Assembly (NCBI GenBank): GCA_963761645.1
Contig: CAVXIG010000010.1
Span: 81,266-145,265, forward strand
Length of the DNA stretch: 64,000 nucleotides
Origin: an uncultured Acidobacteriota bacterium
GTDB lineage: Bacteria > Acidobacteriota > Thermoanaerobaculia > Multivoradales > UBA5704
Direction of reading: 5' to 3'
Shown here: positions 11,018 through 34,412 of the stretch, one piece after another
Layout of the letters: each line of letters begins with the position of its first letter
Numbering within the stretch: position 1 is the first letter of the stretch
Made by a program: the position numbers and the translations under genes
The notes under the pieces: generated by a model
Database searches by the model: none
What the model was told of the DNA's origin: nothing
Seen by the model: the letters and a program-made list of their open reading frames with translations, nothing else

Positions 11018-13006
11018 TTGACTCGTAGAATGCTGATCAACGCGCAGCGTCCGGAAGAGCTGCGCGTCGCCATCGTCCAGGGGAATGTCCTTGAAAACTA
11101 CAAGGTGGACGTCGCCGAAGCGGGCCTGACCCGCGGCAACATCTACCGCGGAGTCATCGCCAGCATCCAGCCCAGCCTGAACGCCGCCTTCATCGATTAC
11201 GGCGCCGAGCGGCACGGGTTCCTGGCGATCCAGGACGTGGTCCCCGACGCCTACTACCGGCGCCCCTCCAGCGGCCACCCTCGCATCGACGAGGTGCTGG
11301 AGAAGAACAAGCCCATCGTCGTCCAGGTCGAGAAGGATCCGATCGGAACGAAGGGCGCGGCGCTCACCACCAGCCTCTCCCTCGCCGGCCGCTATCTCGT
11401 GCTGACCCCCTTCGAGGACACGCGCGGCGTCTCGCGCAAAGTCGAGGACGAGGACACGCGCAAGAAGCTCAAGGGGCTGGCCAACGGTCTCGATCTGCCC
11501 GACGGGTGCGGCGTCATCCTGCGCACCAACGCCCTGGGCCAGACCAAAATCACGCTCAACCGCGACCTCTCGGCCCTGCTGCGCCTGTGGAAACGGGTGC
11601 AGACGGCGGCGATGCAGGGCAAGGGGACCCGCCTCCTCTACACCGACCAGGACCTGATCCTCCAGGCGCTCCGGGACTACCTGGACACCAGTATCGAGGA
11701 GGTCCTGGTCGACGACGACGAGGCGTTCCACAAGGCGAAGGCCTACATCGAGGCCTTCATGCCGCGCTCGAAGACGCGCCTGATCCGCTATGCCGAGCGC
11801 ATCCCCCTGTTCAGCCGCTACGACCTCGAGTCGCAGATCGACCGCATCTACGAACGCCGGGTGGAGCTGCCGAGCGGCGGCTCGATCGTCATCGACCCCA
11901 CCGAGGCGCTGACCGCGATCGACGTCAACTCCGGCCGCTCGACCCGCGCCGCCACCCAGGAGGAGACGGCCCTCAACACCAACGTCGAGGCGGCCGCCGA
12001 GGTGGCCCGCCAGCTCCGGCTGCGCGACATCGGCGGCATCGTGGTCGTCGACTTCATCGACATGCGCTCCTCGAAGGGTCAGCGCAAGGTCGAGAAGGTC
12101 CTCAAGGACGCCATGAAGGTGGACAAGGCGCGCTCGACGATCGGCCGCGTCTCGCCCAACGGCCTGCTCGAGATCAACCGCCAGCGCATCCAGCAGGCGC
12201 TGCAGCTCCGCACGCACCGCCCCTGCCCGACCTGCAACGGCGTCGGGCGTCTGGCGAGCGAGGAGATGGTCTGCCTGTCGCTGCTGCGCCGGGTCGAGGC
12301 CCGCGCCGCCACCGGCTCGATCCAGGGCGCCCGCATCGGTCTCCACCCGGAGCTCGCCGACGCGCTCCAGAACAACTACCGGCGCGAGCTCGCCGACCTC
12401 GAGACCGAGTTCGACATCGAGATCGAGGTCATCGCGACCGCCGGTCTCCACCGGCCGGACGAGAAGATCGATTGGCGGAAGCGGGAGAAGCCCGTGCCGC
12501 CGCCGAAGCCCAAGCAGGCCGCGATCACCTTCCAGCCCTGGGATCTCGCCTCGCTCGAAGACGAGGACGACGACGAGGACGAGGACTTCGCCGCGGAGGG
12601 CGAGGACCACGGCGAGGAGAACGGCCAGGCCGCGAGCGGGGAGAGCGCCGAGAGCGATGCCGCCGCCAGGAAACGCCGCCGGCGCCGTGGCGGGCGCAAG
12701 CGGAAGAAGAAGGGGGCCCCCGGCGAGAATGGCAACGGCGGCGTCCACGGTACTGGCGCCAGCGACCAGGCCGCCCTGGAAGCCGCGGGAGAAGGCGCGC
12801 CGGCCGACACCTACCTCGCGCCCGTCGTGGAGGGTCCCGCGTTCATCGACGAGCCCGCGGATCTCTTCGATGAGGACGATGACGAGGAGGACGAGGACGA
12901 CGATCTCGAAGAGGGGCAGGAGGCCGTCAACGCCGACGGCACGGTGGCTGCCCCTGGAGCGCCCGGAACGAAGAAGCGCCGGCGGCGTCGGCGGCGGCGG
13001 AAGTAG
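11018..13006 (+). CDS. rne: ribonuclease E/G family endoribonuclease
   Basis: 662 aa; S1 domain (VGNIYRGVI...), catalytic core (...ALTAIDVNSG...DIGGIVVVDFIDM...), CPxCxGxG zinc link, acidic/Arg-Lys-rich C-terminal tail; TTG start. Confidence 0.85.
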   Translation: MTRRMLINAQRPEELRVAIVQGNVLENYKVDVAEAGLTRGNIYRGVIASIQPSLNAAFIDYGAERHGFLAIQDVVPDAYYRRPSSGHPRIDEVLEKNKPIVVQVEKDPIGTKGAALTTSLSLAGRYLVLTPFEDTRGVSRKVEDEDTRKKLKGLANGLDLPDGCGVILRTNALGQTKITLNRDLSALLRLWKRVQTAAMQGKGTRLLYTDQDLILQALRDYLDTSIEEVLVDDDEAFHKAKAYIEAFMPRSKTRLIRYAERIPLFSRYDLESQIDRIYERRVELPSGGSIVIDPTEALTAIDVNSGRSTRAATQEETALNTNVEAAAEVARQLRLRDIGGIVVVDFIDMRSSKGQRKVEKVLKDAMKVDKARSTIGRVSPNGLLEINRQRIQQALQLRTHRPCPTCNGVGRLASEEMVCLSLLRRVEARAATGSIQGARIGLHPELADALQNNYRRELADLETEFDIEIEVIATAGLHRPDEKIDWRKREKPVPPPKPKQAAITFQPWDLASLEDEDDDEDEDFAAEGEDHGEENGQAASGESAESDAAARKRRRRRGGRKRKKKGAPGENGNGGVHGTGASDQAALEAAGEGAPADTYLAPVVEGPAFIDEPADLFDEDDDEEDEDDDLEEGQEAVNADGTVAAPGAPGTKKRRRRRRRRK

Positions 13007-26663: not shown

Positions 26664-28296
26664 TCCTTGGAAGAACGTCCAACACGTCCAGCGCCCACGT
26701 GGACACCTTCTGCCGCGAGTCCCTGCCGCCGCCGGAGCTGATGCCGGACCTGCGCTATGACGCGCTGCCGGAGCTCGCCTATCCGGACCGGCTGAACTGC
26801 GCCGCCGAGCTGCTCGACCGGCGGATCGCGGAAGGCGACGGCGACCGCGTCGGTCTTCCACTCCGCCGGCGGCCACTGGACCTACCGCCAGCTCCTGGAG
26901 ACCGCCAACCGCATCGCTCACGTTCTGGTGGAGGACCTCGGGATCGTGCCCGGCAACCGCGTGCTGCTGCGCGGGCCGAACAACCCGATGATGGCGGCCT
27001 GCTGGTTCGCCGTGCTCAAGGCCGGCGGCGTGGTGGTCTGCACCATGCCGCTGCTGCGCGTGCGCGAGCTGACCTACATCGCCGACAAGGCGAAGATCCG
27101 CCTCGCGCTGACCGACGCGCGGATCGCCGCCGATTGCGAGCAGGCCGCCACCTCGCGCGGAACGTGATCCATTTCAACAGCGCCGAGCCCGGCTCGCTCG
27201 AATCCCTGATGGCAGGGCAAACCCGCGACGTTCGACAACTGCGACACCGCCGCGGACGACACCGCCCTGATCGCCTTCACCTCCGGCACCACCGGGCAGG
27301 CGAAGGGGACGATGCACTTCCACCGCGACGTGATCGCCTGCTGCGACTGCTTCCCGCCCTACGTCCTGAAGGCGGAGCGGGACGACATCTTCTGCGGCTC
27401 CCCGCCGCTCGCCTTCACCTTCGGGCTCGGCGGCCTGCTCCTCTTCCCGCTGCGCATCGGCGCCTCGGCGCTGCTCCTGGAGCAGGCCTCGCCGCCGAAC
27501 CTTTTGCAAGGGATTCAGGATCACCGCGCGACCATCGTCTTCACCGCTCCGACCGCCTACCGCGCCATGGCCGATCTGGTGCAGGGGTTCGACATCTCGA
27601 GCCTCAGGAAGTGCGTCTCGGCCGGCGAGACCCTGCCGAAGCCGACCTTCGAAAAGTGGAAGGAGGCGACCGGCCTCGAGATCATCGACGGCATCGGCTC
27701 GACCGAGATGCTCCACATCTTCATCAGCTCCTCCGGCGACGAGATCCGCCCCGGCTCCACCGGCCGGGTCGTCCCCGGCTACGAGGCGCGGGTGGTGGAC
27801 GAGGACGGCAACGAGGTGCCGCCCGGCACCATCGGACACCTCGCGGTGCGCGGGCCGACCGGCTGCCGCTACCTGGACAACCTGGAGCGGCAGCGGGTCT
27901 ACGTCCGAACGGCTGGAACCTCCCGGGCGACTCCTACGTCCAGGACGCGGACGGCTACTTCTGGTACCAGGCGCGCACCGACGACATGATCGTCTCGGCG
28001 GGGCACAACATCTCCGGCCCCGAGGTCGAGAGCGTGCTGCTCGATCATCCGGCGGTCGCGGAGTGCGGCGTGGTGGCGGCGCCGGACGAGGGTCGCGGCC
28101 AGATCGTCAAGGCCTACGTCGTGACTGCGCCCGGGCTTCGACACCCGGCCAGGAGCTGATCAAGGAGCTGCAGGACTTCGTCAAGGCGGAGATCGCGCCG
28201 TACAAATATCCGCGGGCGATCGAGTTCGTCGACAGCCTGCCGCGCACCGAGACCGGCAAGCTCCAGCGCTTCCGCCTGCGGGAGCGCGCAGGTTGA
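26660..28296 (+). CDS. aryl-CoA ligase (AMP-binding enzyme; benzoate/2-aminobenzoate-CoA ligase-like), at least 5 frameshifts
   Basis: GTG start in GTGA overlap with ACAD stop; pieces in ORFs 25481..28159, 26928..27167, 27312..27989, 28063..28296: ...[19 protein letters not shown] (AMP motif)...YGSTE...[43 protein letters not shown]...[16 protein letters not shown]. Confidence 0.75.
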
Positions 28297-28692
28297 GCGA
28301 CATCCTCCTGCCGGAAGGGTGGGCCAAGCCCATCGGCTACGCCAACGGCATCGCCGCCCGCGGCCGGCTGGTCTTCGTCGCCGGCCAGATCGGCTGGAAC
28401 CCGGCGACCTGCCGAGTTCGAGACCGACGACTTCGCGGCGCAGACCGAGCAGACCCTGCGCAACGTCGCCGCCGTGCTGCGCGAGGCGGGAGCCGGCCCC
28501 GAGCACATCGCGCGGATGACCTGGTACATCACCGACAAGCCCGCCTACCTCGCCGCCCGGCGCGACATCGGCCGCGCCTGGCGCGAGATCCTCGGCCGGG
28601 TTTATCCGGCGATGGCGGTGGTGGTGGTGAGCGCCCTGATCGAGGACCGCGCCAAGGTGGAGATCGAGGCGACGGCGGTGGTGCCCGAGTAG
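28293..28692 (+). CDS. ridA: RidA/YjgF family enamine-imine deaminase (frameshift around 28410)
   Basis: TTG start in TTGA overlap with ligase stop; [37 protein letters not shown]... then ...[41 protein letters not shown]...[27 protein letters not shown]. Confidence 0.75.
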
Positions 28693-28715
28693 CGACGACA
28701 CCGCCCCGGTAGCTC

Positions 28716-29453
28716 CTATTTTTGACAGATGATATGCATCGCCGACGGTGCGGCGATGTACTCGTCCCAGAAGCCCTCGCCACGCTCGTGTTCCGATTCC
28801 GCGGGGATCAGGAAAGGCTCGATCTTGCAGGAGTGGAATCCCACGGTTCGGCATGCCTCCTCGTAGACCTCCCAGGGCCACCAGTAGAAGTCGAACTCCA
28901 CCGTGTTCGCACCGAGGTACAGTGTGCCGCGGAGCCTCGCCCCCTCGTGAAGGGTCTCGTCCAGAAGCCGGTAGCCGAACCCGTATTTTCGCTGATCGAC
29001 TACGGGCCGCGGCGGCTGGAGCGGATTGGCGATACTCGCAACGAACGGCTGGCCCGGCTCGAGGTTGTCGTAGACCGTCCGCATCATCTGGAGCAGTTGC
29101 TCCCGGCTCTCGGCATAGTGCAGGAGGTACGCGGCGGAGACACGGTCGAACGAGCCGATTTTCCCCAGCGTCGCGGCGTCCGCGACACGGTACTCGATCT
29201 CCATGGGCTCCGCGTCTTCGCGCTGCTGGGCCAACGCGATCATCTGCGCCGAGATGTCGACGCCCACCACGCGCGCGGCCCCCCACCGCTTGAGCAGGCG
29301 GGTGCCCATCCCGTCGCCGCAGGCCAGGTCGAGGACGGAGAGACCCGCCAGGTCGCCAAGCCGCTGGTGGAGCGAGTACCACTCGGCGTCGCGGAGCGGC
29401 ACGGCGGCGGAGATCCTCTGATAGTCGAGGGCAATCGAGTCGTACTGTGTCAC
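28716..29453 (-). CDS. class I SAM-dependent methyltransferase
   Basis: 245 aa intact; motif I VLDLACGDGMGT; divergent from the RiPP-like precursor gene. Confidence 0.75.
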   Translation of the reverse strand: MTQYDSIALDYQRISAAVPLRDAEWYSLHQRLGDLAGLSVLDLACGDGMGTRLLKRWGAARVVGVDISAQMIALAQQREDAEPMEIEYRVADAATLGKIGSFDRVSAAYLLHYAESREQLLQMMRTVYDNLEPGQPFVASIANPLQPPRPVVDQRKYGFGYRLLDETLHEGARLRGTLYLGANTVEFDFYWWPWEVYEEACRTVGFHSCKIEPFLIPAESEHERGEGFWDEYIAAPSAMHIICQK

Positions 29454-29597
29454 GTGTCTTCCTTCCGTGGAGTGGGTCTGCCGCCGAGCCGCGTCCTCCG
29501 GCGCCTTGGACTCACAGCCTTCACGCGTAGTGCGCTCATGGCGGCATTCTGGATTGCGAAAGGCGTGCCGGAAAAAAGCCGCGGCTGCTCTACCATC

Positions 29598-29633
29598 TCC
29601 GCTACGAATCGCTTGGAACCTCGCCCCTTTGGG
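29598..29633. repeat. 31-bp direct repeat, copy A (ccgctacgaaTcgcTtggAacctcgcccc...)
   Basis: About 87 percent identical to copy B at 30529..30565; the two copies bracket the precursor-peptide segment. Confidence 0.5.
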
Positions 29634-29673
29634 CCAAGGTCGAGATCGAGGCCACGGCGGTTGTGCCCGAGTA
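29632..29673 (+). pseudogene. remnant 3-prime fragment of a second RidA gene (encodes [13 protein letters not shown])
   Basis: gccaaggtcgagatcgaggccacggcggttgtgcccgagtaa encodes the same C-terminal peptide as ridA at 28654..28692, with synonymous differences; no upstream ORF. Confidence 0.45.
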
Positions 29674-29711
29674 AGGGCGGATCATTCTCCAAGATTGGCG
29701 GAGAGCCACGA

Positions 29712-29741
29712 TTGACAGCCCAATGTCTCGGGGAGCAAAAT
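29712..29741 (+). promoter_or_regulatory. sigma70-like promoter: -35 TTGACA (29712-29717), 18-nt spacer, -10 CAAAAT (29736-29741)
   Basis: Perfect -35 hexamer about 70 nt upstream of the precursor ATG; followed by GGAGGG Shine-Dalgarno at 29776-29781. Confidence 0.4.
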
Positions 29742-29784
29742 TGCCCGCGCGCTTTTGCGCTACCTCTCACTAACCGGAGGGCTT

Positions 29785-29946
29785 ATGAAGAAAACGTTCA
29801 AGAAGCTCAACCTCGCCAAGGAGACGATCTGCGAGCTCGACACCCTGGGAAGCGTCGTCGGGGGAGCCACCACCACCTGCAATTCTACCTTCTGCACCAG
29901 GACCTGCACGACCAGCTACAACACCTGCACGACCTACCTCTGCTGA
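29785..29946 (+). CDS. RiPP-like precursor peptide (53 aa): Gly-Gly leader plus Cys/Ser/Thr-rich core
   Basis: MKKTFKKLNLAKETICELDTLGSVVGG | ATTTCNSTFCTRTCTTSYNTCTTYLC*; strong Shine-Dalgarno and promoter; core has 5 Cys and 13 Ser/Thr of 26 residues. Confidence 0.55.
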   Translation: MKKTFKKLNLAKETICELDTLGSVVGGATTTCNSTFCTRTCTTSYNTCTTYLC

Positions 29947-30046
29947 TGGATCTCGACCGGCTGAATTGAGCGACGTCGGGGACCCGGTCGCCACAGCCGG
30001 CACGCCGTCGACGACCGGAGCGAGAAGGTCGTCGCCACTCTGCTCC

Positions 30047-30085
30047 CCGAAGTGCGGCCTTTTTGCACGGGCCCTGGTGCAAAAG
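30047..30085. terminator. hairpin gcggcctttttgcac-gggccctg-gtgcaaaaggccgc downstream of precursor gene
   Basis: 14-bp near-perfect inverted repeat about 100 nt after the precursor stop; no U-tract, so terminator function is uncertain. Confidence 0.3.
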
Positions 30086-30528
30086 GCCGCGCTTGGGTGA
30101 GCCCCTGGCGCTTGGCGGGCTCATTAACGCTCGGCCGCCGTCACGCTCCGATACACCGATTGGGGCACGTTTCCGGCCCACTAAAACCGTGGGTGGTCGC
30201 TCGTGGTGAAGCGCGTATCCTGGTTCTCGTGGTGCCCGGAGTCGAGGTCTGTTGCGAAGCCCCAGCGGGGCGGCAGCGGGCGAAGATCCGCCCGTCGGCA
30301 GCCGCCGAAACGGCTGCCACCTCGCTGGGGCACCTCGTTGGTTGACGAAGGGCGCTAGCCGTTGGACCGGTCGTCGCGCGGCTGGGTAGGATCCTCCGTG
30401 AGGGTCCCAGGGATGGTCAGGTGGCTGCTTTTCAGGAGGGACAAGAAGAGGAATAGGATTCGCATCCCCCGATTTTCCCCCAAGTGGCCGGCGTTTGTAT
30501 AGACGGGCGAGCAGTCGGCCTCATCGGA

Positions 30529-30565
30529 CCCGCTACGAAGCGCCTGGCACCTCGCCCCCTGCGAG
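30529..30565. repeat. 31-bp direct repeat, copy B
   Basis: cccgctacgaaGcgcCtggCacctcgccccc matches copy A. Confidence 0.5.
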
Positions 30566-30688
30566 ACGAAAGCGGTAGAAAAAAGACGGGGCCCTGTGTC
30601 CAGACGCAGGAGCCCCGTCAACCCGCACGGGTTTCCTTCGATTCAGTTGTCAAAGAGCGTTTTGCTCGCCAAAAGTGCTCCGCGAGCC

Positions 30689-31041
30689 TCATTCCCCGCG
30701 CCTCGAGAGGCGTTCCCCGCCTCTCGAGGCCAATCCGCTCCCTCTCGCGCCCCATTCCCTACCGCCGCAACCCGTTCCCTCCAGGGAATCAGGGATGAAG
30801 TCCAAACTTTGCCCCATTCCCCACCCTTCACGCTCCATGGGGACTCCGGAACGCGGCATTCCCCGTGGGGAACGCCGCCCGGGATCCAGGGAACGGGCCG
30901 CCAGACGTCTTCATATCATGCAAGCTCAAGTCAACGTCTCATTCCCTCTGGGGAATGCCCCGCCAGCAGCGGGGAACGCCTCATTCCCCCTTCGCCGCAA
31001 CTCATTCCCCCGAGGGAGCATCAATCACTCTATAGGGAATC
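30689..31041. repeat. dense array (about 12 copies, both orientations) of an 8-mer CATTCCCC / GGGGAATG-like motif, including palindromes
   Basis: cattccccgcg CCTCGAGAGG cgttccccg CCTCTCGAGG ... cattccct ... cgttccct ... cattcccc ... cattccccgtggggaacg ... cattccctctggggaatg ... ggggaacgcctcattccccc ... tagggaatcc; non-coding, lower G+C. Confidence 0.6.
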
Positions 31042-31293
31042 CACCGCAAAGCGAGCCTCTGAAGCGCTGAACGCTCCCGAGTCTCCGCCGCAGGGTCTTG
31101 ACGACATCCTTAACGCGGTGAATACTATTCATATAGCGCTTGTCTGTCCAGGGGCTTCGAGAAGAGGCACTCAGCAGCCCGGCGAAGGGCCTGGGGCGGC
31201 CCTGCGGATCGCCGGGCTCCGCCGTCGAGCCCGCGCTCCGTCGCCGTCCCCGAGGAACGGCCCGAGCTCTTTGACAATCGATGGACCTGCCAG

Positions 31294-31318
31294 GGGAACG
31301 GTAGCGGGGCCGTTCCCC
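31294..31318. other. hairpin ggggaacgg-tagcgggg-ccgttcccc in the 5-prime flank of IS110 transposase (same GGGGAAC/GTTCCCC motif as the array)
   Basis: 9-bp perfect inverted repeat about 170 nt upstream of the transposase start. Confidence 0.4.
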
Positions 31319-31482
31319 TTGGCTCCTACCTTTCCGCGAATGACTCGCGCCACCCTGCCCGAACCGCGTTCACCCACCGGCGAAGGCGGTAGAGATGGGA
31401 TGAGAAGGCCAACCTCCTGAGACGCAGTGCCATACTTTGGCCTGCAAACAGGAGAAAAAGCGCTGGTAGGCGCGAAAGGAGG

Positions 31483-32550
31483 TTGGCCGTGGTTCACTCT
31501 AGCAGAGTCGAGGTGCAGGAGGTGGTGGGGTTGGATGTCGGGGATCGTTCGAGCCAGATCTGTCGGTTGGATCGTCAGACCGGGACCGTCCTTGAGGAGA
31601 GGCGGTTGTCGACGACGACGGCGAGCGTCCAGTGTTATTTCGGAGCTCTGGCGCCTCAGTTGATCGCGCTGGAGAGCGGGACCCACAGCCTGTGGCTGAC
31701 GCGGTTGCTGAAATCTTTGGGTCACGAGGTGATTGTGGCCAATCCGAGCAAGGTCCGGGCGATCTCGTCGAGCCTGCAGAAGACCGACGAGCGCGACGCA
31801 CGGTGCCTGGCGCAATTGGTCCGGGTGGACCCGCAGTTGCTGTCGCCGGTGCATCCGCGCAGCGAGGAATCTCAGCAAGCGATCGCGGTCGTACGGGCTC
31901 GGGAGGGCCTGGTCAAGGCACGGACGATGTTGATCAATCAGATCCGCGGGATGGTGAAGTCGTTCGGCTTCCGTCTGCCGGCGGTCTCCTCGGCGGGGTT
32001 TGCCCGCAAAATTCAGAAAGAAGAGACCCTGCCCTGCTCGCTGAAGACGACGCTGGAGCCGTTACTGCGGGTGATCGCCGAAGTGAGTCAGGAGATCGCC
32101 CGCTTCGACAAAGAGGTCGAGGCCTTGGCCCGACGCTGGCCGGTGACCCAGCGGCTGCGCCAGATCAAGGGGGTGGGAGCGCTGACAGCTCTGGTGTTCG
32201 TGCTGACGTTGGGGGATCCCTACCGCTTCGCCTGCTCACGGGCCGTGGGAGCGTATCTGGGCTTGGTCCCGGGCAATCGCAGCTCGGGCCAGTCGACTCC
32301 GCAAATGCCGATTACCCGACAAGGGGACCGCATGTTAAGACGGCTGCTGGTGCAAGCCTCTCACTACGTCTTGGGACCGTTTGGGCAAGACAGCGACCTG
32401 CGACGATTTGGGCTACGACTGGCTGAGCGCGGGGGCAAGAGCGGTAAGAAACGAGCCGTGGTGGCCGTGGCTCGCAAGCTGGCGGTGGTGCTGCACTGTC
32501 TCTGGGTCAGCGAAACGGACTACCTGCCTCTGCGCGCAACGGCAGCCTAG
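31483..32550 (+). CDS. IS110 family transposase/recombinase
   Basis: 355 aa intact; N-terminal VVGLDVGDRSS (RuvC-like DEDD) and C-terminal ...KGVGALTALVFVLTLGDPYRF...YLGLVPGNRSSGQS... Tnp domain; AAAGGAGG Shine-Dalgarno. Confidence 0.9.
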   Translation: MAVVHSSRVEVQEVVGLDVGDRSSQICRLDRQTGTVLEERRLSTTTASVQCYFGALAPQLIALESGTHSLWLTRLLKSLGHEVIVANPSKVRAISSSLQKTDERDARCLAQLVRVDPQLLSPVHPRSEESQQAIAVVRAREGLVKARTMLINQIRGMVKSFGFRLPAVSSAGFARKIQKEETLPCSLKTTLEPLLRVIAEVSQEIARFDKEVEALARRWPVTQRLRQIKGVGALTALVFVLTLGDPYRFACSRAVGAYLGLVPGNRSSGQSTPQMPITRQGDRMLRRLLVQASHYVLGPFGQDSDLRRFGLRLAERGGKSGKKRAVVAVARKLAVVLHCLWVSETDYLPLRATAA

Positions 32551-32993
32551 AAGAACCAGGCAGGGACGAAAGACAACGAGCAGGTAGGAGAAACGTCCGA
32601 AGAATCGGAGTTGGAGTCTCAACCCCCGTTGTCGGCGACTGCGTTGTGACGTCTTGGCCTTCGAGGCCGACGTAGAGAGTGCAGCGCCGCGGCGGTGGAA
32701 CCCCATAATGCACCGAGCCCAATGGCGGCTCCTTGAGAGTGCGGATGGAAGACTCGGGGACTGATCCAACTCTGGTCTATAAGGAAGGCCGCCATGGCGG
32801 CCTTGCAATTTGGGGCCTTCTCATGGAAGACGTCCCAGACGATGTGCGCTGATCTTTCAAGGCCAACGCCGGCGGGTCGTCTCCGCGGCGGCGATGCCGG
32901 CCTGATCCTCACCGACCCTGGACGTCGCGAATTCCGACGAGGCCCCCCCTCCCCTACGCAGCGGCAGGCACGCCGTGAAGTAAGATCCAGACG

Positions 32994-34412
32994 ATGACCG
33001 GCACGGAATCACTGTGGGGACTGATTCTCCTCATCTGCCATGCCGCCGGCTTCCTCTGCGCCGTCCACGCCCTGATGTCGGTGCGGACCCCCCAGGGCAC
33101 CATGGCCTGGGGGGTCGCCCTGCTCGCGTTCCCCTACTTCGCGGTGCCCGCCTACTTCGTGCTCGGACGGTCGAAGTTCCACGGCTACAAGGTCGCCCGG
33201 CAGGTTCTGGAGGCGAGCTCGGAGGAGAGAGCCGCCAGGGCCGTGCGGCCGTTCGTCGTTCAGCCGGAGGATCACGGCCCCCTGCTCGCCGCCGTCGCGC
33301 TGGCCACGATCCCCTTTCTGAAAGGCAACGAGGTCGAGCTGCTGGTGGACGGCCGGGCCACCTTCGACGACATTTTCGCCGGCATCGAAGAGGCTCAGGG
33401 CTATGTGCTCGTGCAGTTCTTCATCGTGCATGACGACGAGCTCGGGCGGGAGCTGAAATCGCTCCTGCTCCGCAAGGCCGCCGCCGGAGTCAGGGTCTAC
33501 TTCCTGTTCGACGAGTTCGGCAGCCACGCCCTGCCGCGGGCCTATCTGCGCGAGCTTCGCGACGGCGGGGTCGCGGCCCGTCCGTTCCACACCACCCGCG
33601 GCCCCGGCAACCGGTTCCAGCTCAACTTCCGCAACCATCGCAAGGTGGTCGTCGTCGACGGCCGCACCGGCTGGATCGGCGGGCACAACGTGGGGAACGA
33701 GTACCTGGGCCTGAGCCCGCGCCTCGGCCCCTGGCGGGACACGCACGTCCGCGTCACCGGCCCCGCGGTGCTCGGCATGCAGAAGTCCTTCTATGACGAC
33801 TGGCGCTGGGCGACGGGTGAAAAGCTGCAGCTCGACTGGCTCGCCCAGCCTTCCGCCCGGGGGGACGTGCCGGCGCTGATCCTGGCCTCGGGGCCGGCCG
33901 ACCCGCTCGAGACCGCGAGCCTGATGTTCCAGGACGTGATCCACTCGGCGCGCCGGAGGCTCTGGATCACCAGCCCCTACTTCGTCCCCGACCCGGCCGT
34001 GGTCGGCGCGCTCCACCTGGCGGCGCTGCGCGGGGTCGAGGTGCGTATCCTGATTCCCAACGATCCCGACCACCTGCTGGTCTATCTGTCGGCGTTCGCC
34101 TTCGTCGGCGAGATGATCGACGCCGGCATCGAGATCTACCGCTACCAGGCGGGCTTTCTGCACCAGAAAGTCTTTCTGATCGACGACGCGGTGGCCGGCG
34201 TCGGCACCGCGAACCTCGACAACCGCTCCTTCCGGCTCAATTTCGAGATCACCGCGATCTTCGCCGACCGCGACGTCGCCGCGCGGGTGGAGCGCATGCT
34301 CGCGGCGGACTTCGCCCGGGCGCGCCGGATGACCCGCGAGGAGCTGCGGAAGAAGCCGTTCTGGTTCAAGGCGGCCGCCCGCGCCGCCACTCTCGCCGCG
34401 CCGATCCAGTAA
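32994..34412 (+). CDS. cls: cardiolipin synthase (PLD superfamily, two HKD motifs)
   Basis: 472 aa intact; two N-terminal TM helices; HRKVVVVDG and HQKVFLIDD HKD motifs. Confidence 0.85.
   Translation: MTGTESLWGLILLICHAAGFLCAVHALMSVRTPQGTMAWGVALLAFPYFAVPAYFVLGRSKFHGYKVARQVLEASSEERAARAVRPFVVQPEDHGPLLAAVALATIPFLKGNEVELLVDGRATFDDIFAGIEEAQGYVLVQFFIVHDDELGRELKSLLLRKAAAGVRVYFLFDEFGSHALPRAYLRELRDGGVAARPFHTTRGPGNRFQLNFRNHRKVVVVDGRTGWIGGHNVGNEYLGLSPRLGPWRDTHVRVTGPAVLGMQKSFYDDWRWATGEKLQLDWLAQPSARGDVPALILASGPADPLETASLMFQDVIHSARRRLWITSPYFVPDPAVVGALHLAALRGVEVRILIPNDPDHLLVYLSAFAFVGEMIDAGIEIYRYQAGFLHQKVFLIDDAVAGVGTANLDNRSFRLNFEITAIFADRDVAARVERMLAADFARARRMTREELRKKPFWFKAAARAATLAAPIQ

Follow-up and report, generated by a model that had tools for sequence, protein, structure and literature searches.

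In a 64,000-nt stretch of an uncultured Acidobacteriota contig (hereafter the window), a segment of about 1 kb with a putative peptide precursor gene lies between two near-identical direct repeats, and the question is whether this segment is a mobile cassette and how it came to stand there. A sequence-only reading of the locus had proposed that the cassette displaced or truncated a second copy of ridA. The reading favoured here, to which we give a probability of roughly 0.55, is that positions 29599-30558 are a single exchangeable module in an array of accessory genes that is punctuated by the repeat and varies between strains, and that the module was moved by recombination at this repeat. The array site is best read as the interval from ridA to cls in a species-level population of uncultured soil Thermoanaerobaculia (Acidobacteriota). 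The features concerned are listed in Table 1.

Table 1. Features of the repeat-bracketed interval and its surroundings (window coordinates; DR, junction repeat; MT, methyltransferase gene).
Feature	Position	Strand	Basis
Resident ridA, Ribonuc_L-PSP family	28293..28692	+	Pfam; alignment to the intact 132-aa ridA of L001
MT, class I SAM methyltransferase, single-gene accessory unit	28716..29453	-	Pfam
U, MT upstream region, ending at the left edge of DR-A	29454..29598		Alignment
DR-A, 29-nt junction repeat	29599..29627	+	Window search, copy alignment
Travelling block: relic, promoter (29712-29741), precursor and ~35 nt	29631..29984	+	95.5% identical to L001 1331-1684
42-nt relic of ridA 3' end	29633..29674	+	Repeat search; identical copy at L001 1333-1374
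Precursor-like peptide, 53 aa, GG leader, Cys/Thr-rich core	29785..29946	+	Codon-position GC signal; weak sub-threshold NF038153 match
Filler Q, 545 bp, unique to the window, no coding signal	29985..30529		Sequence comparison, coding analysis
DR-B, 29-nt junction repeat	30530..30558	+	Window search, copy alignment
T, right flank	30563..30619	-	Sequence read directly; shared with the end of L001
CRTTCCCY/RGGGAAYG 8-mer array, ~21 nt spacing; neighbour, outside the module	30691..31040		Motif inspection
IS110-family element, 1448 bp, transposase 31483-32550	31389..32836	+	Pfam, NCBIfam; ends set against three relatives

The bracketing direct repeats are real. DR-A (CCGCTACGAATCGCTTGGAACCTCGCCCC) and DR-B (CCGCTACGAAGCGCCTGGCACCTCGCCCC) are identical at 26 of 29 positions and are spaced 931 bp from start to start; their length, previously given as 31 bp, is 29 nt. 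They are the sole matches with up to 3 mismatches in the 64-kb window (0 expected, 100 shuffles), and a third copy inside the interval, at about 30306-30340, is degenerate and consists of a right-half doublet only. Counts per contig are 2 in the window, 4 in L005, 5 in L023 and 1 in L025; L024 and L026 are duplicates of L005, each with 4. All copies have the same orientation and match 25-29 of the 29 positions with knife-sharp edges, and comparison of their flanks showed no conservation beyond 29-30 nt. The intervals between them range from 54 to 943 bp (710, 725 and 943 bp in L005) and contain genes. As the scan of 241 million metagenome records returned the repeat in 4 contigs only, all at the ridA-cls locus, it is not a genome-wide element; its core was absent from the viral contigs scanned. 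The DR is a locus-specific junction repeat of one orientation and sharp edges, which separates unrelated gene-sized segments. Neither dyad symmetry nor a hairpin was found in it, folding being no better than that of shuffled sequences with or without 20-nt flanks (z -0.9 to +1.6), and for this reason it resembles no known recombination site. A sigma-54 promoter (TGGCAC-N5-TTGC) was rejected on inspection of the sequence. A CRISPR array, with repeats of 28-37 nt and spacers of 30-40 nt, was rejected on the spacing and the genes in the intervals, and REP/REPIN sequences with RAYT on the missing hairpin and on the small number of copies, confined to one locus.

Related Thermoanaerobaculia contigs, metagenome-assembled like all sequences compared here, share flanks of 93-96% identity, with ridA on one side and cls and a P450 gene on the other. 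At least five architectures were found between those flanks (the window, L001, L005, L023 and L025), and the only content common to the variable regions across strains is the DRs and a TMEM175 gene. On the left, homology to L001 ends no more than 2-3 nt from the outer edge of DR-A; on the right, it restarts no more than about 4 nt from the outer edge of DR-B. Judged by this alignment, the flagged interval is exactly an indel relative to L001, in agreement with the earlier proposal of an insertion. L001 itself has no recognisable DR at either position, and a 118-bp run of degenerate repeats containing CTCGCC precedes its relic. The simple empty site, U-DR-T with copy A joined to copy B, was absent from every contig compared, and no contig carried two full ridA genes. 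U is common to L001, L023 and L029 and in part to L005.

The modules between the repeats are varied in content and in gene orientation, and some have promoters. They include genes for GG-leader peptides, a LuxI-like protein, a methyltransferase and a secreted protein; in L005, two DRs enclose a low-GC LuxI-like ORF exactly, and two others enclose the MT gene. No recombinase gene was detected in the tested ORFs of the window or in ORFs flanking the arrays of L005, L023 and L025, a search that covered part of the small ORFs and, in L005, a contig that stops at the array.

The fragment beside DR-A encodes the last 13 residues and the stop of RidA, as previously described, and is identical to the resident ridA end (28651-28692) at 38 of 42 positions. 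Its four differences are all at third codon positions and all silent, including a change of TAG to TAA. Because chance would make all four substitutions silent only rarely (P = 0.0024), the relic is, on its codon pattern, derived from a functional ridA allele different from the resident one. The resident gene, formerly called intact, is frameshifted as sequenced by one extra base near 28414 relative to L001, and the CoA-ligase gene preceding it shows several single-base indels relative to the same contig. In L001, the relic is identical over 50 nt, has the same left boundary to within 2 nt and is joined to the same promoter and precursor, between ridA and MT and so on the opposite side of the MT gene relative to the window. 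Since the three stand together at this other position, the relic belongs to the travelling block, and the claim that a second ridA was truncated in place loses its footing. The RidA fragment is best read as a scar carried from an earlier position, not as a broken second gene. Two further ridA 3' ends lie beside the block in L001. The ACCGCCCCGG after the ridA stop was considered as a degenerate DR half-site and rejected; given that the third of the ridA ends in L001 has CCTCACGCCCCGGTAG, it is more simply sequence that ancestrally lay downstream of ridA.

The promoter (sigma-70-like), precursor gene and hairpins (30042-30102 and 30259-30331, both within Q) named by the sequence-only reading are all present, and its suggestion that the precursor gene is accessory was borne out. 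L023 and L025 have the same flanks without the precursor, L005 has other GG-leader peptides in its place, and the sub-block 29732-29979 recurs at 82-84% identity in L002-L004, where the gene stands in unrelated contexts. A class I lanthipeptide precursor was rejected: the match to NF038153 (lant_leader_L1a) reached 17.3 bits against a cutoff of 22, and neither LanB/LanC nor any other lanthipeptide enzyme domain was found in the window ORFs scanned or beside the homologues. Exact-protein look-ups of the precursor and MT returned nothing on record. No ORF with coding signal was found in 29985-31388 and no credible Rfam match in 27000-34000; on the minus strand, T contains a stem (30585-30619) followed by T6, that is, an intrinsic-terminator-like hairpin.

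The MT gene is 91-97% identical among Thermoanaerobaculia MAGs, yet its contexts are unrelated, and conservation extends no further than about 30 nt upstream of the start and about 8 nt past the stop. In L016 the order is intact MT, a 1.9-kb insert, a diverged DR and an 89-nt MT 3' relic. By this order L016 is an independent occurrence of the anatomy seen with ridA, namely intact gene end, insert, DR and relic. Two further MT contexts (L033 and L034) hold neither DR nor Y1 remnant; therefore MT mobility across phyla is a separate phenomenon.

As to the origin of the repeat, a Y1 (HUH, IS200-like) transposase-like gene contains, within its 3' coding region, an internal piece that the DR matches when read on the reverse strand. 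In L005, the copy at 12196-12224 continues directly into ...AYREAAEKLRAGNRDAGFPAGSFPPALPFV; this is the C-terminal end of a Y1_Tnp protein whose intact form is encoded at L006:5573-6490. Contig L030, which is unrelated, has the middle part of a Y1_Tnp-like gene followed by an exact DR core of 18 nt, so that the 3' half of the gene lies beside the leftmost L005 copy and the 5'/middle part beside the L030 core. The reverse-strand consensus ends in FVA(A), and the L006 counterpart reads WFVAAYREA. From these two junctions and the 4-residue match, the DR probably derives from an internal 29-30-nt piece of this 3' coding region. The two gene halves were never seen in one array, and no uninterrupted Y1 gene containing a DR was found; a plasmid search did not return the Y1 protein. 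L005, L006 and L021 each contain both MT and remnants of Y1 genes.

Module exchange by recombination at the DR would account for this arrangement as follows. The DR would act like a shared attachment-site core that is duplicated with every insertion, and in the simplest route a circle with a single DR would integrate at a DR already resident. Another route, driven by homology, would duplicate gene 3' ends in part: a circle bearing a gene 3' fragment would integrate into that gene and place intact 3' end, insert, DR and displaced relic in a row. The 42-nt ridA relic may be such a footprint, gained while the peptide gene sat directly behind a ridA allele, and would have moved along as the block re-inserted at the DR upstream of MT. 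Neither a recombinase nor a clean empty site was found, so this recombination mechanism is an inference. That the window module arose from the arrangement in L001, with a circle excised between ridA repeats and re-entering at a DR, was refuted, as Q resembles neither ridA nor the L001 spacer.

Several other explanations were weighed against exchange at the DR. Insertion of the cassette in place into a second, tandem ridA, with its last 42 nt left behind, fits a real relic immediately 3' of DR-A whose silent-only divergence shows a former functional gene. It is nevertheless very unlikely, given the same fused block elsewhere in L001, the order ridA-MT-U-DR in L023 with neither relic nor second ridA, and the lack of two full ridA genes in any contig. 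An equally improbable cause is an artefact, namely a chimeric assembly of co-existing strains joined at a short repeat. The locus is hypervariable inside one population, single-base indels are clustered just upstream in the window, and three joints (DR-A to relic, precursor block to Q, and Q to DR-B) occur in the window alone; however, final assembly k-mers usually exceed the 29 nt of the repeat, the L005 architecture recurs in three assemblies, and the ridA-MT, U-DR, relic-precursor, DR-B-T and IS110-cls joints were each seen in an independent contig. That the RNA-guided recombinase of the neighbouring IS110 targeted the DR and made the arrangement is scarcely credible. The element is indeed present, 830 bp to the right of DR-B, and a relative in L030 has the DR core 305 bp past its right end, but in three independent insertions (window, L031 and L032) the flanks of the mapped ends bear no relation to the DR, and the arrays of L005, L023 and L025 have no IS110. 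By the mapping of its ends, it is an independent insertion unrelated to the module.

The DR might also be a cis-regulatory site, an operator or promoter element of co-regulated accessory genes, that ordinary homologous or illegitimate recombination uses incidentally. Hypervariable bacteriocin loci do shuffle at conserved regulatory repeats, a same-strand gene starts within 40-200 nt downstream of most copies, and doublets occur in L023. Even so we regard this as unlikely: the close match and sharp edges of the copies are unlike degenerate binding sites, several copies face no gene (DR-B; in L005, one flanked by two convergent genes), L001 has the same promoter and precursor without a DR, the apparent origin of the repeat is transposase-like coding sequence, and truncated genes abut copies (a DUF4403 gene fragment in L023). 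Quite improbable, in turn, is that an HUH (Y1) enzyme of the DR-containing gene family builds the array by nicking at or near the DR and capturing or transducing adjacent DNA. Such capture or transduction is known from rolling-circle ISCR/IS91 elements and Helitrons, and in complex class 1 integrons ISCR1-type capture gives gene 3' fragments and partial duplications, which those at the present locus resemble; the position of the DR within the 3' part of a Y1_Tnp-like gene and the co-occurrence of Y1 remnants with MT point the same way. Against it, neither the window nor any DR array has an intact Y1 gene, a subterminal hairpin of the type that Y1 enzymes recognise is missing from the DR, and the repeat is bounded on two sides, not one. 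The family has no known activity, and some TnpA-Y1 subclasses with large C-terminal domains are linked to no repeats (PMC6006769).

If the DR is a true recombination site, the locus represents a system for exchanging cassettes in an uncultured soil phylum about which little is known. Its site would differ from attC, from dif and from any att of the tRNA type, an HUH enzyme may be involved, and it would widen the known ways in which bacteria assemble accessory-gene arrays. If it is not, a well-documented recombination hotspot remains, whose footprints, nested gene 3'-end relics, are datable. Orphan RiPP-like or bacteriocin-like peptide genes can move as units of 250-900 bp without modification or export genes, which matters for genome mining that depends on gene neighbourhood. 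A bolder version, which we consider distinctly unlikely, is a previously undescribed gene-capture platform with an integron-like outcome: its site would be a 29-nt non-palindromic repeat from an HUH (Y1) gene, and small modules with or without promoters, orphan GG-leader peptide genes included, would be inserted and excised by that HUH enzyme or by an unknown recombinase working in trans.

No description of such DR arrays was found in the literature, and the closest likenesses are partial. Integron cassette arrays and CALINs (attC clusters without integrase) are likewise arrays of gene-sized modules (0.7-1.9 kb here) at one locus. As in sedentary chromosomal integron arrays, the repeat is near-identical, lineage-specific and of one orientation, the content varies between close strains, and a module often carries one ORF, which begins immediately behind the repeat. 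However, attC sites are imperfect hairpins with R''/L''-L'/R' cores (RYYYAAC ... GTTRRRY), and the 29-nt DR has neither dyad symmetry nor R''/R' (GTTRRRY) cores, so an attC site was rejected. Neither an IntI tyrosine recombinase with attI at the array end nor any other recombinase domain was present in the scanned ORFs flanking the arrays of the window, L005, L023 and L025, and genes here lie in both orientations, some with their own promoter. The pdif modules of Acinetobacter plasmids, which are Xer-dependent, share sites of 28-29 nt that bracket small exchangeable modules without a recombinase of their own, whereas dif-like sites have an 11-6-11 layout, partial dyad symmetry and alternating orientation. 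A Xer/dif-like site was rejected, as the arms CCGCTACGAAT and CACCTCGCCCC are non-complementary and all copies are direct. The hypervariable blp/pln bacteriocin loci also shuffle accessory GG-leader peptide genes between strains at conserved short sequences, but there the conserved sequences consist of regulator boxes and leader-coding regions, and transporter and regulator genes lie close by; none of these was found here.

Tandem accretion of integrative elements, with the att site in a gene 3' end, differs in its target, which here would be a transposase-like gene and not a tRNA or housekeeping gene, and in scale, the modules being far too small for an integrase and none lying nearby in the sequence examined, although one encoded elsewhere in the genome might act in trans. 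The two are alike in that one short identity block stands at every joint with differing flanks on both sides and that displaced gene 3' ends remain as relics. A further, possible likeness is that the 3' part of the target gene lies beside a copy at one array end (L005) and the 5' part beside a copy in a different contig, L030. In ISCR1 and complex class 1 integrons, circular intermediates with part of the resident sequence integrate by homologous recombination and leave the partial duplication 3'-CS1 and 3'-CS2 around the captured genes. ISCR encodes a Y2 enzyme with oriIS at one end only, whereas the DR is two-edged, appears to lie inside a Y1-like gene and is accompanied by no active element. 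In both, an HUH-family gene is implicated, and both show the pattern of intact gene end, insert and relic, here with ridA (42 and 148 nt) and MT (89 nt).

As listed in the table, the precursor gene lies between two direct repeats, DR-A and DR-B, which agree at 26 of 29 positions and start 931 bp apart. Within the 64 kb of the window (68.6% G+C) they were the only DR matches with up to three mismatches, where chance predicts none. The bracketing repeats claimed by the sequence-only reading are thus real and significant, with a length of 29 nt rather than 31. The relic behind DR-A matches the upstream ridA end (28651-28692) at 38 of 42 positions. As that reading had noticed, the differences are synonymous: all four are silent third-position changes, TAG to TAA included. 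Because four random substitutions would be silent throughout with P = 0.0024, the relic therefore diverged as part of a working ridA allele, not by decay in place.

Features around the repeat-bounded interval, in gene order
Feature	Position	Length	Remark
Fused OYE/enoyl-CoA hydratase gene			
Acyl-CoA dehydrogenase gene			
AMP-dependent ligase gene			frameshifted
ridA			
Class I SAM methyltransferase gene (MT)	28716-29453		minus strand
DR-A	29599-29627	29 nt	CCGCTACGAATCGCTTGGAACCTCGCCCC
Relic of ridA 3' end	29633-29674	42 nt	five bases after DR-A; encodes 13 residues of the RidA end
Sigma-70-like promoter	29712-29741		inside DR-A/DR-B interval
Precursor gene	29785-29946	53 aa	GG-leader, Cys/Thr-rich peptide
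Filler Q	29985-30529		window-unique, between precursor block and DR-B
Hairpins	30042-30102 and 30259-30331		inside DR-A/DR-B interval
Degenerate DR right-half copy	~30306-30340		inside DR-A/DR-B interval
DR-B	30530-30558	29 nt	CCGCTACGAAGCGCCTGGCACCTCGCCCC
Non-coding DNA		about 830 bp	between DR-B and IS110
IS110-family element	31389-32836	1448 bp	ends defined from three relatives
IS110 left end		94 nt	
IS110 transposase gene	31483-32550		
IS110 right end		286 nt	
Cardiolipin synthase gene (cls)			
P450 gene			

Coding periodicity was absent throughout 29985-31388, no lanthipeptide or export gene was found among the window ORFs scanned, and Rfam gave no credible match around the interval. Beyond DR-B, 17 of the 39 CRTTCCCY/RGGGAAYG 8-mers in the window cluster at 30691-31040, spaced by multiples of about 21 nt, and two more lie at 31293-31312. 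On the minus strand these 8-mers are preceded by a promoter-like site (31150->31122) and followed by a stem and T6 terminator (30619->30579), which recurs where L001, a 2.9-kb JGI contig, ends. The putative 540-nt minus-strand RNA has a folding z of -6.3, and the region 30579-31150 encodes a structured non-coding RNA or else is a protein-binding array of iteron/centromere-like type.

Homologues of the precursor (72-91% identity) were found in metagenomes only, and L001 provided the key comparison. Its positions 1-1216 correspond to window 27477-28694 (ligase and ridA, 95%), 1331-1684 to 29631-29984 (relic, promoter and precursor, 95.5%) and 1682-2722 to 28547-29597 (93.7%), the last comprising a third, degenerate ridA 3' end (~148 nt) and then MT with its upstream region. 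Hence, L001 has its relic-precursor block between ridA and MT, whereas in the window the block follows MT. The relic region is the same in both over 50 nt without difference, and the relic thus travels together with the precursor. After the MT upstream region, L001 carries ~120-140 bp of unrelated DNA and then the terminator-like sequence found after DR-B in the window. Homology of the window to L001 breaks off within 2-3 nt of the left edge of DR-A and restarts within ~4 nt of the right edge of DR-B, and the interval 29599-30558 is thus exactly an indel relative to L001. The alignment clearly indicates a strain-level indel polymorphism with breakpoints at the repeat edges. One specific route, by which the window arrangement would have arisen from one like that of L001, was refuted, as filler Q shows similarity to neither ridA nor the spacer of L001. 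In three further contigs (L002-L004) the part shared with the window is confined to 29732-29979 (the promoter -10 side and the gene, 82-84%), in unrelated neighbourhoods. Two of them, the Logan contigs L002 (3985-5331) and L003 (197-1540), carry behind the homologue a gene of the Leu/Phe-tRNA-protein transferase family and a small CxxCxxCC protein, which may reflect a functional partnership or coincidence.

The upstream ridA, called intact by the sequence-only reading, has one extra base near 28414 as sequenced in the window. Compared with L001, ridA and the AMP-dependent CoA ligase (~26700-28420) show at least five single-base indels inside about 530 nt, and the ligase is broken into several ORFs beside intact genes. 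This is either pseudogenisation beside a hotspot or local consensus error from mixed strains.

A genome scan with MT found it 91-97% identical in three MAGs, which placed the window in Thermoanaerobaculia. Of the MAG contigs, L005 is the closest: its cls and P450 are 93.5-95.5% and its MT 96% identical to those of the window, and it differs wholly between these genes. In window orientation it reads Y1-gene remnant, DR; two other GG-leader peptide genes, DR; one LuxI-like ORF, DR; minus-strand MT, DR; and then a 7-kb low-GC island, a TMEM175 gene and cls, with all four DR copies in one orientation. On the reverse strand, the peptides lie at 12017-11860 and 11768-11610 (MKKKTVRKLVLAKETV..., MKKQVKKLVLTKETL...) and the LuxI-like (Autoind_synth) ORF of 46% G+C at 11497-10805, exactly between two DRs; no modification or export genes occur near this array. 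A 21-nt periodic GGTTCCCC array, similar to the window 8-mers, lies just past the Y1 remnant (12700-12520). L024 and L026 have the same architecture. L023 runs ridA, MT, MT upstream region, DR; 21-nt minisatellite, one gene, two DRs; secreted-protein gene, truncated DUF4403 fragment, two DRs; low-GC genes, TMEM175 and cls. In L025, a single DR is followed by two genes, TMEM175 and cls. L023, L025, L005, L001 and the window differ inside flanks that are 93-96% identical, and therefore represent five architectures. Between strains, the DRs and TMEM175 are the sole sequences common to the variable regions, and conservation at the DR copies is confined to 29-30 nt. When 241 million metagenome records were scanned for the DR pattern, four contigs alone matched, every one at this locus. 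DR is locus-specific, which excludes the common genome-wide element named by the sequence-only reading as a refutation.

The precursor is accessory: L023 and L025 lack it, and L005 has other peptides in its place. The sequence-only reading was thus right in its observation and in proposing a mobile or accessory block. Its second ridA truncated by the cassette is not borne out; the block carrying the relic is itself mobile. As side observations, the L023 minisatellite (GGCGAGTCATCCGCCGGRGCC, 21 nt, about 12 copies; 9785-9540, reverse strand) starts directly after a DR copy, and in L001 the 118 bp ahead of the relic contain three degenerate repeats of CTCGATGCGGCTCGCC type. DR-adjacent sequences seem prone to tandem amplification.

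The sequence-only reading had also pointed to the adjacent IS110 element. The element is complete and matches NCBIfam 'IS110 family RNA-guided transposase'; given the defined ends and flanks of three insertions unrelated to DR, it is not targeted to DR, is independent of the module and is incidental. Across its left end, 31230-31500 has a folding z of -3.6, and a bridge RNA could include the long stem at ~31407-31488. Near the right end, at ~32826, homology to L005 restarts; this may point to an IS-associated rearrangement that removed TMEM175, which is kept in L005, L023 and L025.

Several identities of DR were rejected. It is neither attC-like nor REP-like, folding no better than shuffled sequence; dif-like dyad symmetry is absent; the spacing does not fit CRISPR; and a scan of viral contigs found no DR. 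On the reverse strand, the DR consensus (GGG CGA GGT GCC AGG CGA TTC GTA GCG G) encodes GRGARRFVA(A), and the outermost DR of L005 continues directly into ...AYREAAEKLRAGNRDAGFPAGSFPPALPFV, which is 73-77% identical to the C-terminal end of a 305-aa Y1_Tnp (PF01797) protein. An intact version of this protein lies at L006:5573-6490, at 1.2 kb from MT; its relationship to REP-associated tyrosine transposases is distant and sub-threshold. Where the DR consensus joined to the L005 flank predicts RRFVAAYREAAEKL, L006 reads WFVAAYREAAEKL. L030, an unrelated contig, has an exact 18-nt core of DR right after the middle part of a Y1 gene of this kind (...LPVLGVEAILAKDPLHRPSSLARSPAP followed by GRGARRF), and L021 carries Y1 fragments alongside MT fragments. 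The 5' part with DR in one contig, DR with the 3' part in another and DR alone elsewhere form the pattern expected of an insertion-site core inside a gene, duplicated at each insertion. DR thus probably derives from a Y1 transposase-like gene. That the DR array represents a cassette platform linked to an HUH enzyme is unlikely. Among TnpA-Y1 proteins, there are known but uncharacterised subclasses that have large C-terminal domains and lack associated repeats (PMC6006769).

MT itself (window 28716-29453; L007-L015, L017, L027-L029, L033, L034) has been transferred widely as a single-gene unit. Contigs whose neighbouring genes are unrelated carry it at 89-95% identity, and homology is confined to the ORF with ~30 nt upstream and ~8 nt downstream. 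It is listed as toxoflavin synthase in some sources. The MT scan also found copies of 76-86% nucleotide identity in Longimicrobium (Gemmatimonadota) and Jatrophihabitans (Actinomycetota) MAGs.

At a different locus, the more distant Thermoanaerobaculia MAG L016 shows intact MT, a 1.9-kb insert with three genes, a diverged DR and an 89-nt MT 3' relic (90% identity to the intact MT end). The window has the same anatomy: ridA end, insert (MT and its upstream region), DR-A and 42-nt relic; L001 contains nested copies of the ridA end, one of 42 nt and one of about 148 nt. A single crossover, by which a circle with a gene fragment enters the gene, would leave such partial duplications of variable length. 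This kind of crossover is the accepted origin of the duplicated 3'-CS of ISCR1-bearing complex class 1 integrons. The gene-end duplications and DR-bounded modules suggest two routes: modules would enter and leave arrays at DR, and a circle with a gene-end relic would integrate in the homologous gene elsewhere. We infer recombination at DR through circular intermediates and a homology-driven origin of the relics. Against this mechanism count the lack of a recombinase gene among the window ORFs scanned, L001 without recognisable DR, mixed gene orientations, three joints seen in the window alone, comparators that are assembled metagenome contigs throughout and the refuted derivation of the window from an L001-like order. 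Alignment to relatives in search of an empty site, as earlier proposed, yielded the indel against L001, but a clean empty site was not found among the contigs compared, which likewise counts against the mechanism.

The locus is a repeat-punctuated accessory-gene array. It differs from integrons, as the tests for attC structure and IntI failed, and the defining tests for REP/RAYT, pdif, CRISPR and IS110 targeting failed likewise. In outcome, it is comparable to the arrays of sedentary integrons or to elements accreted in tandem at an att site, and its relics resemble those of ISCR1-type capture.
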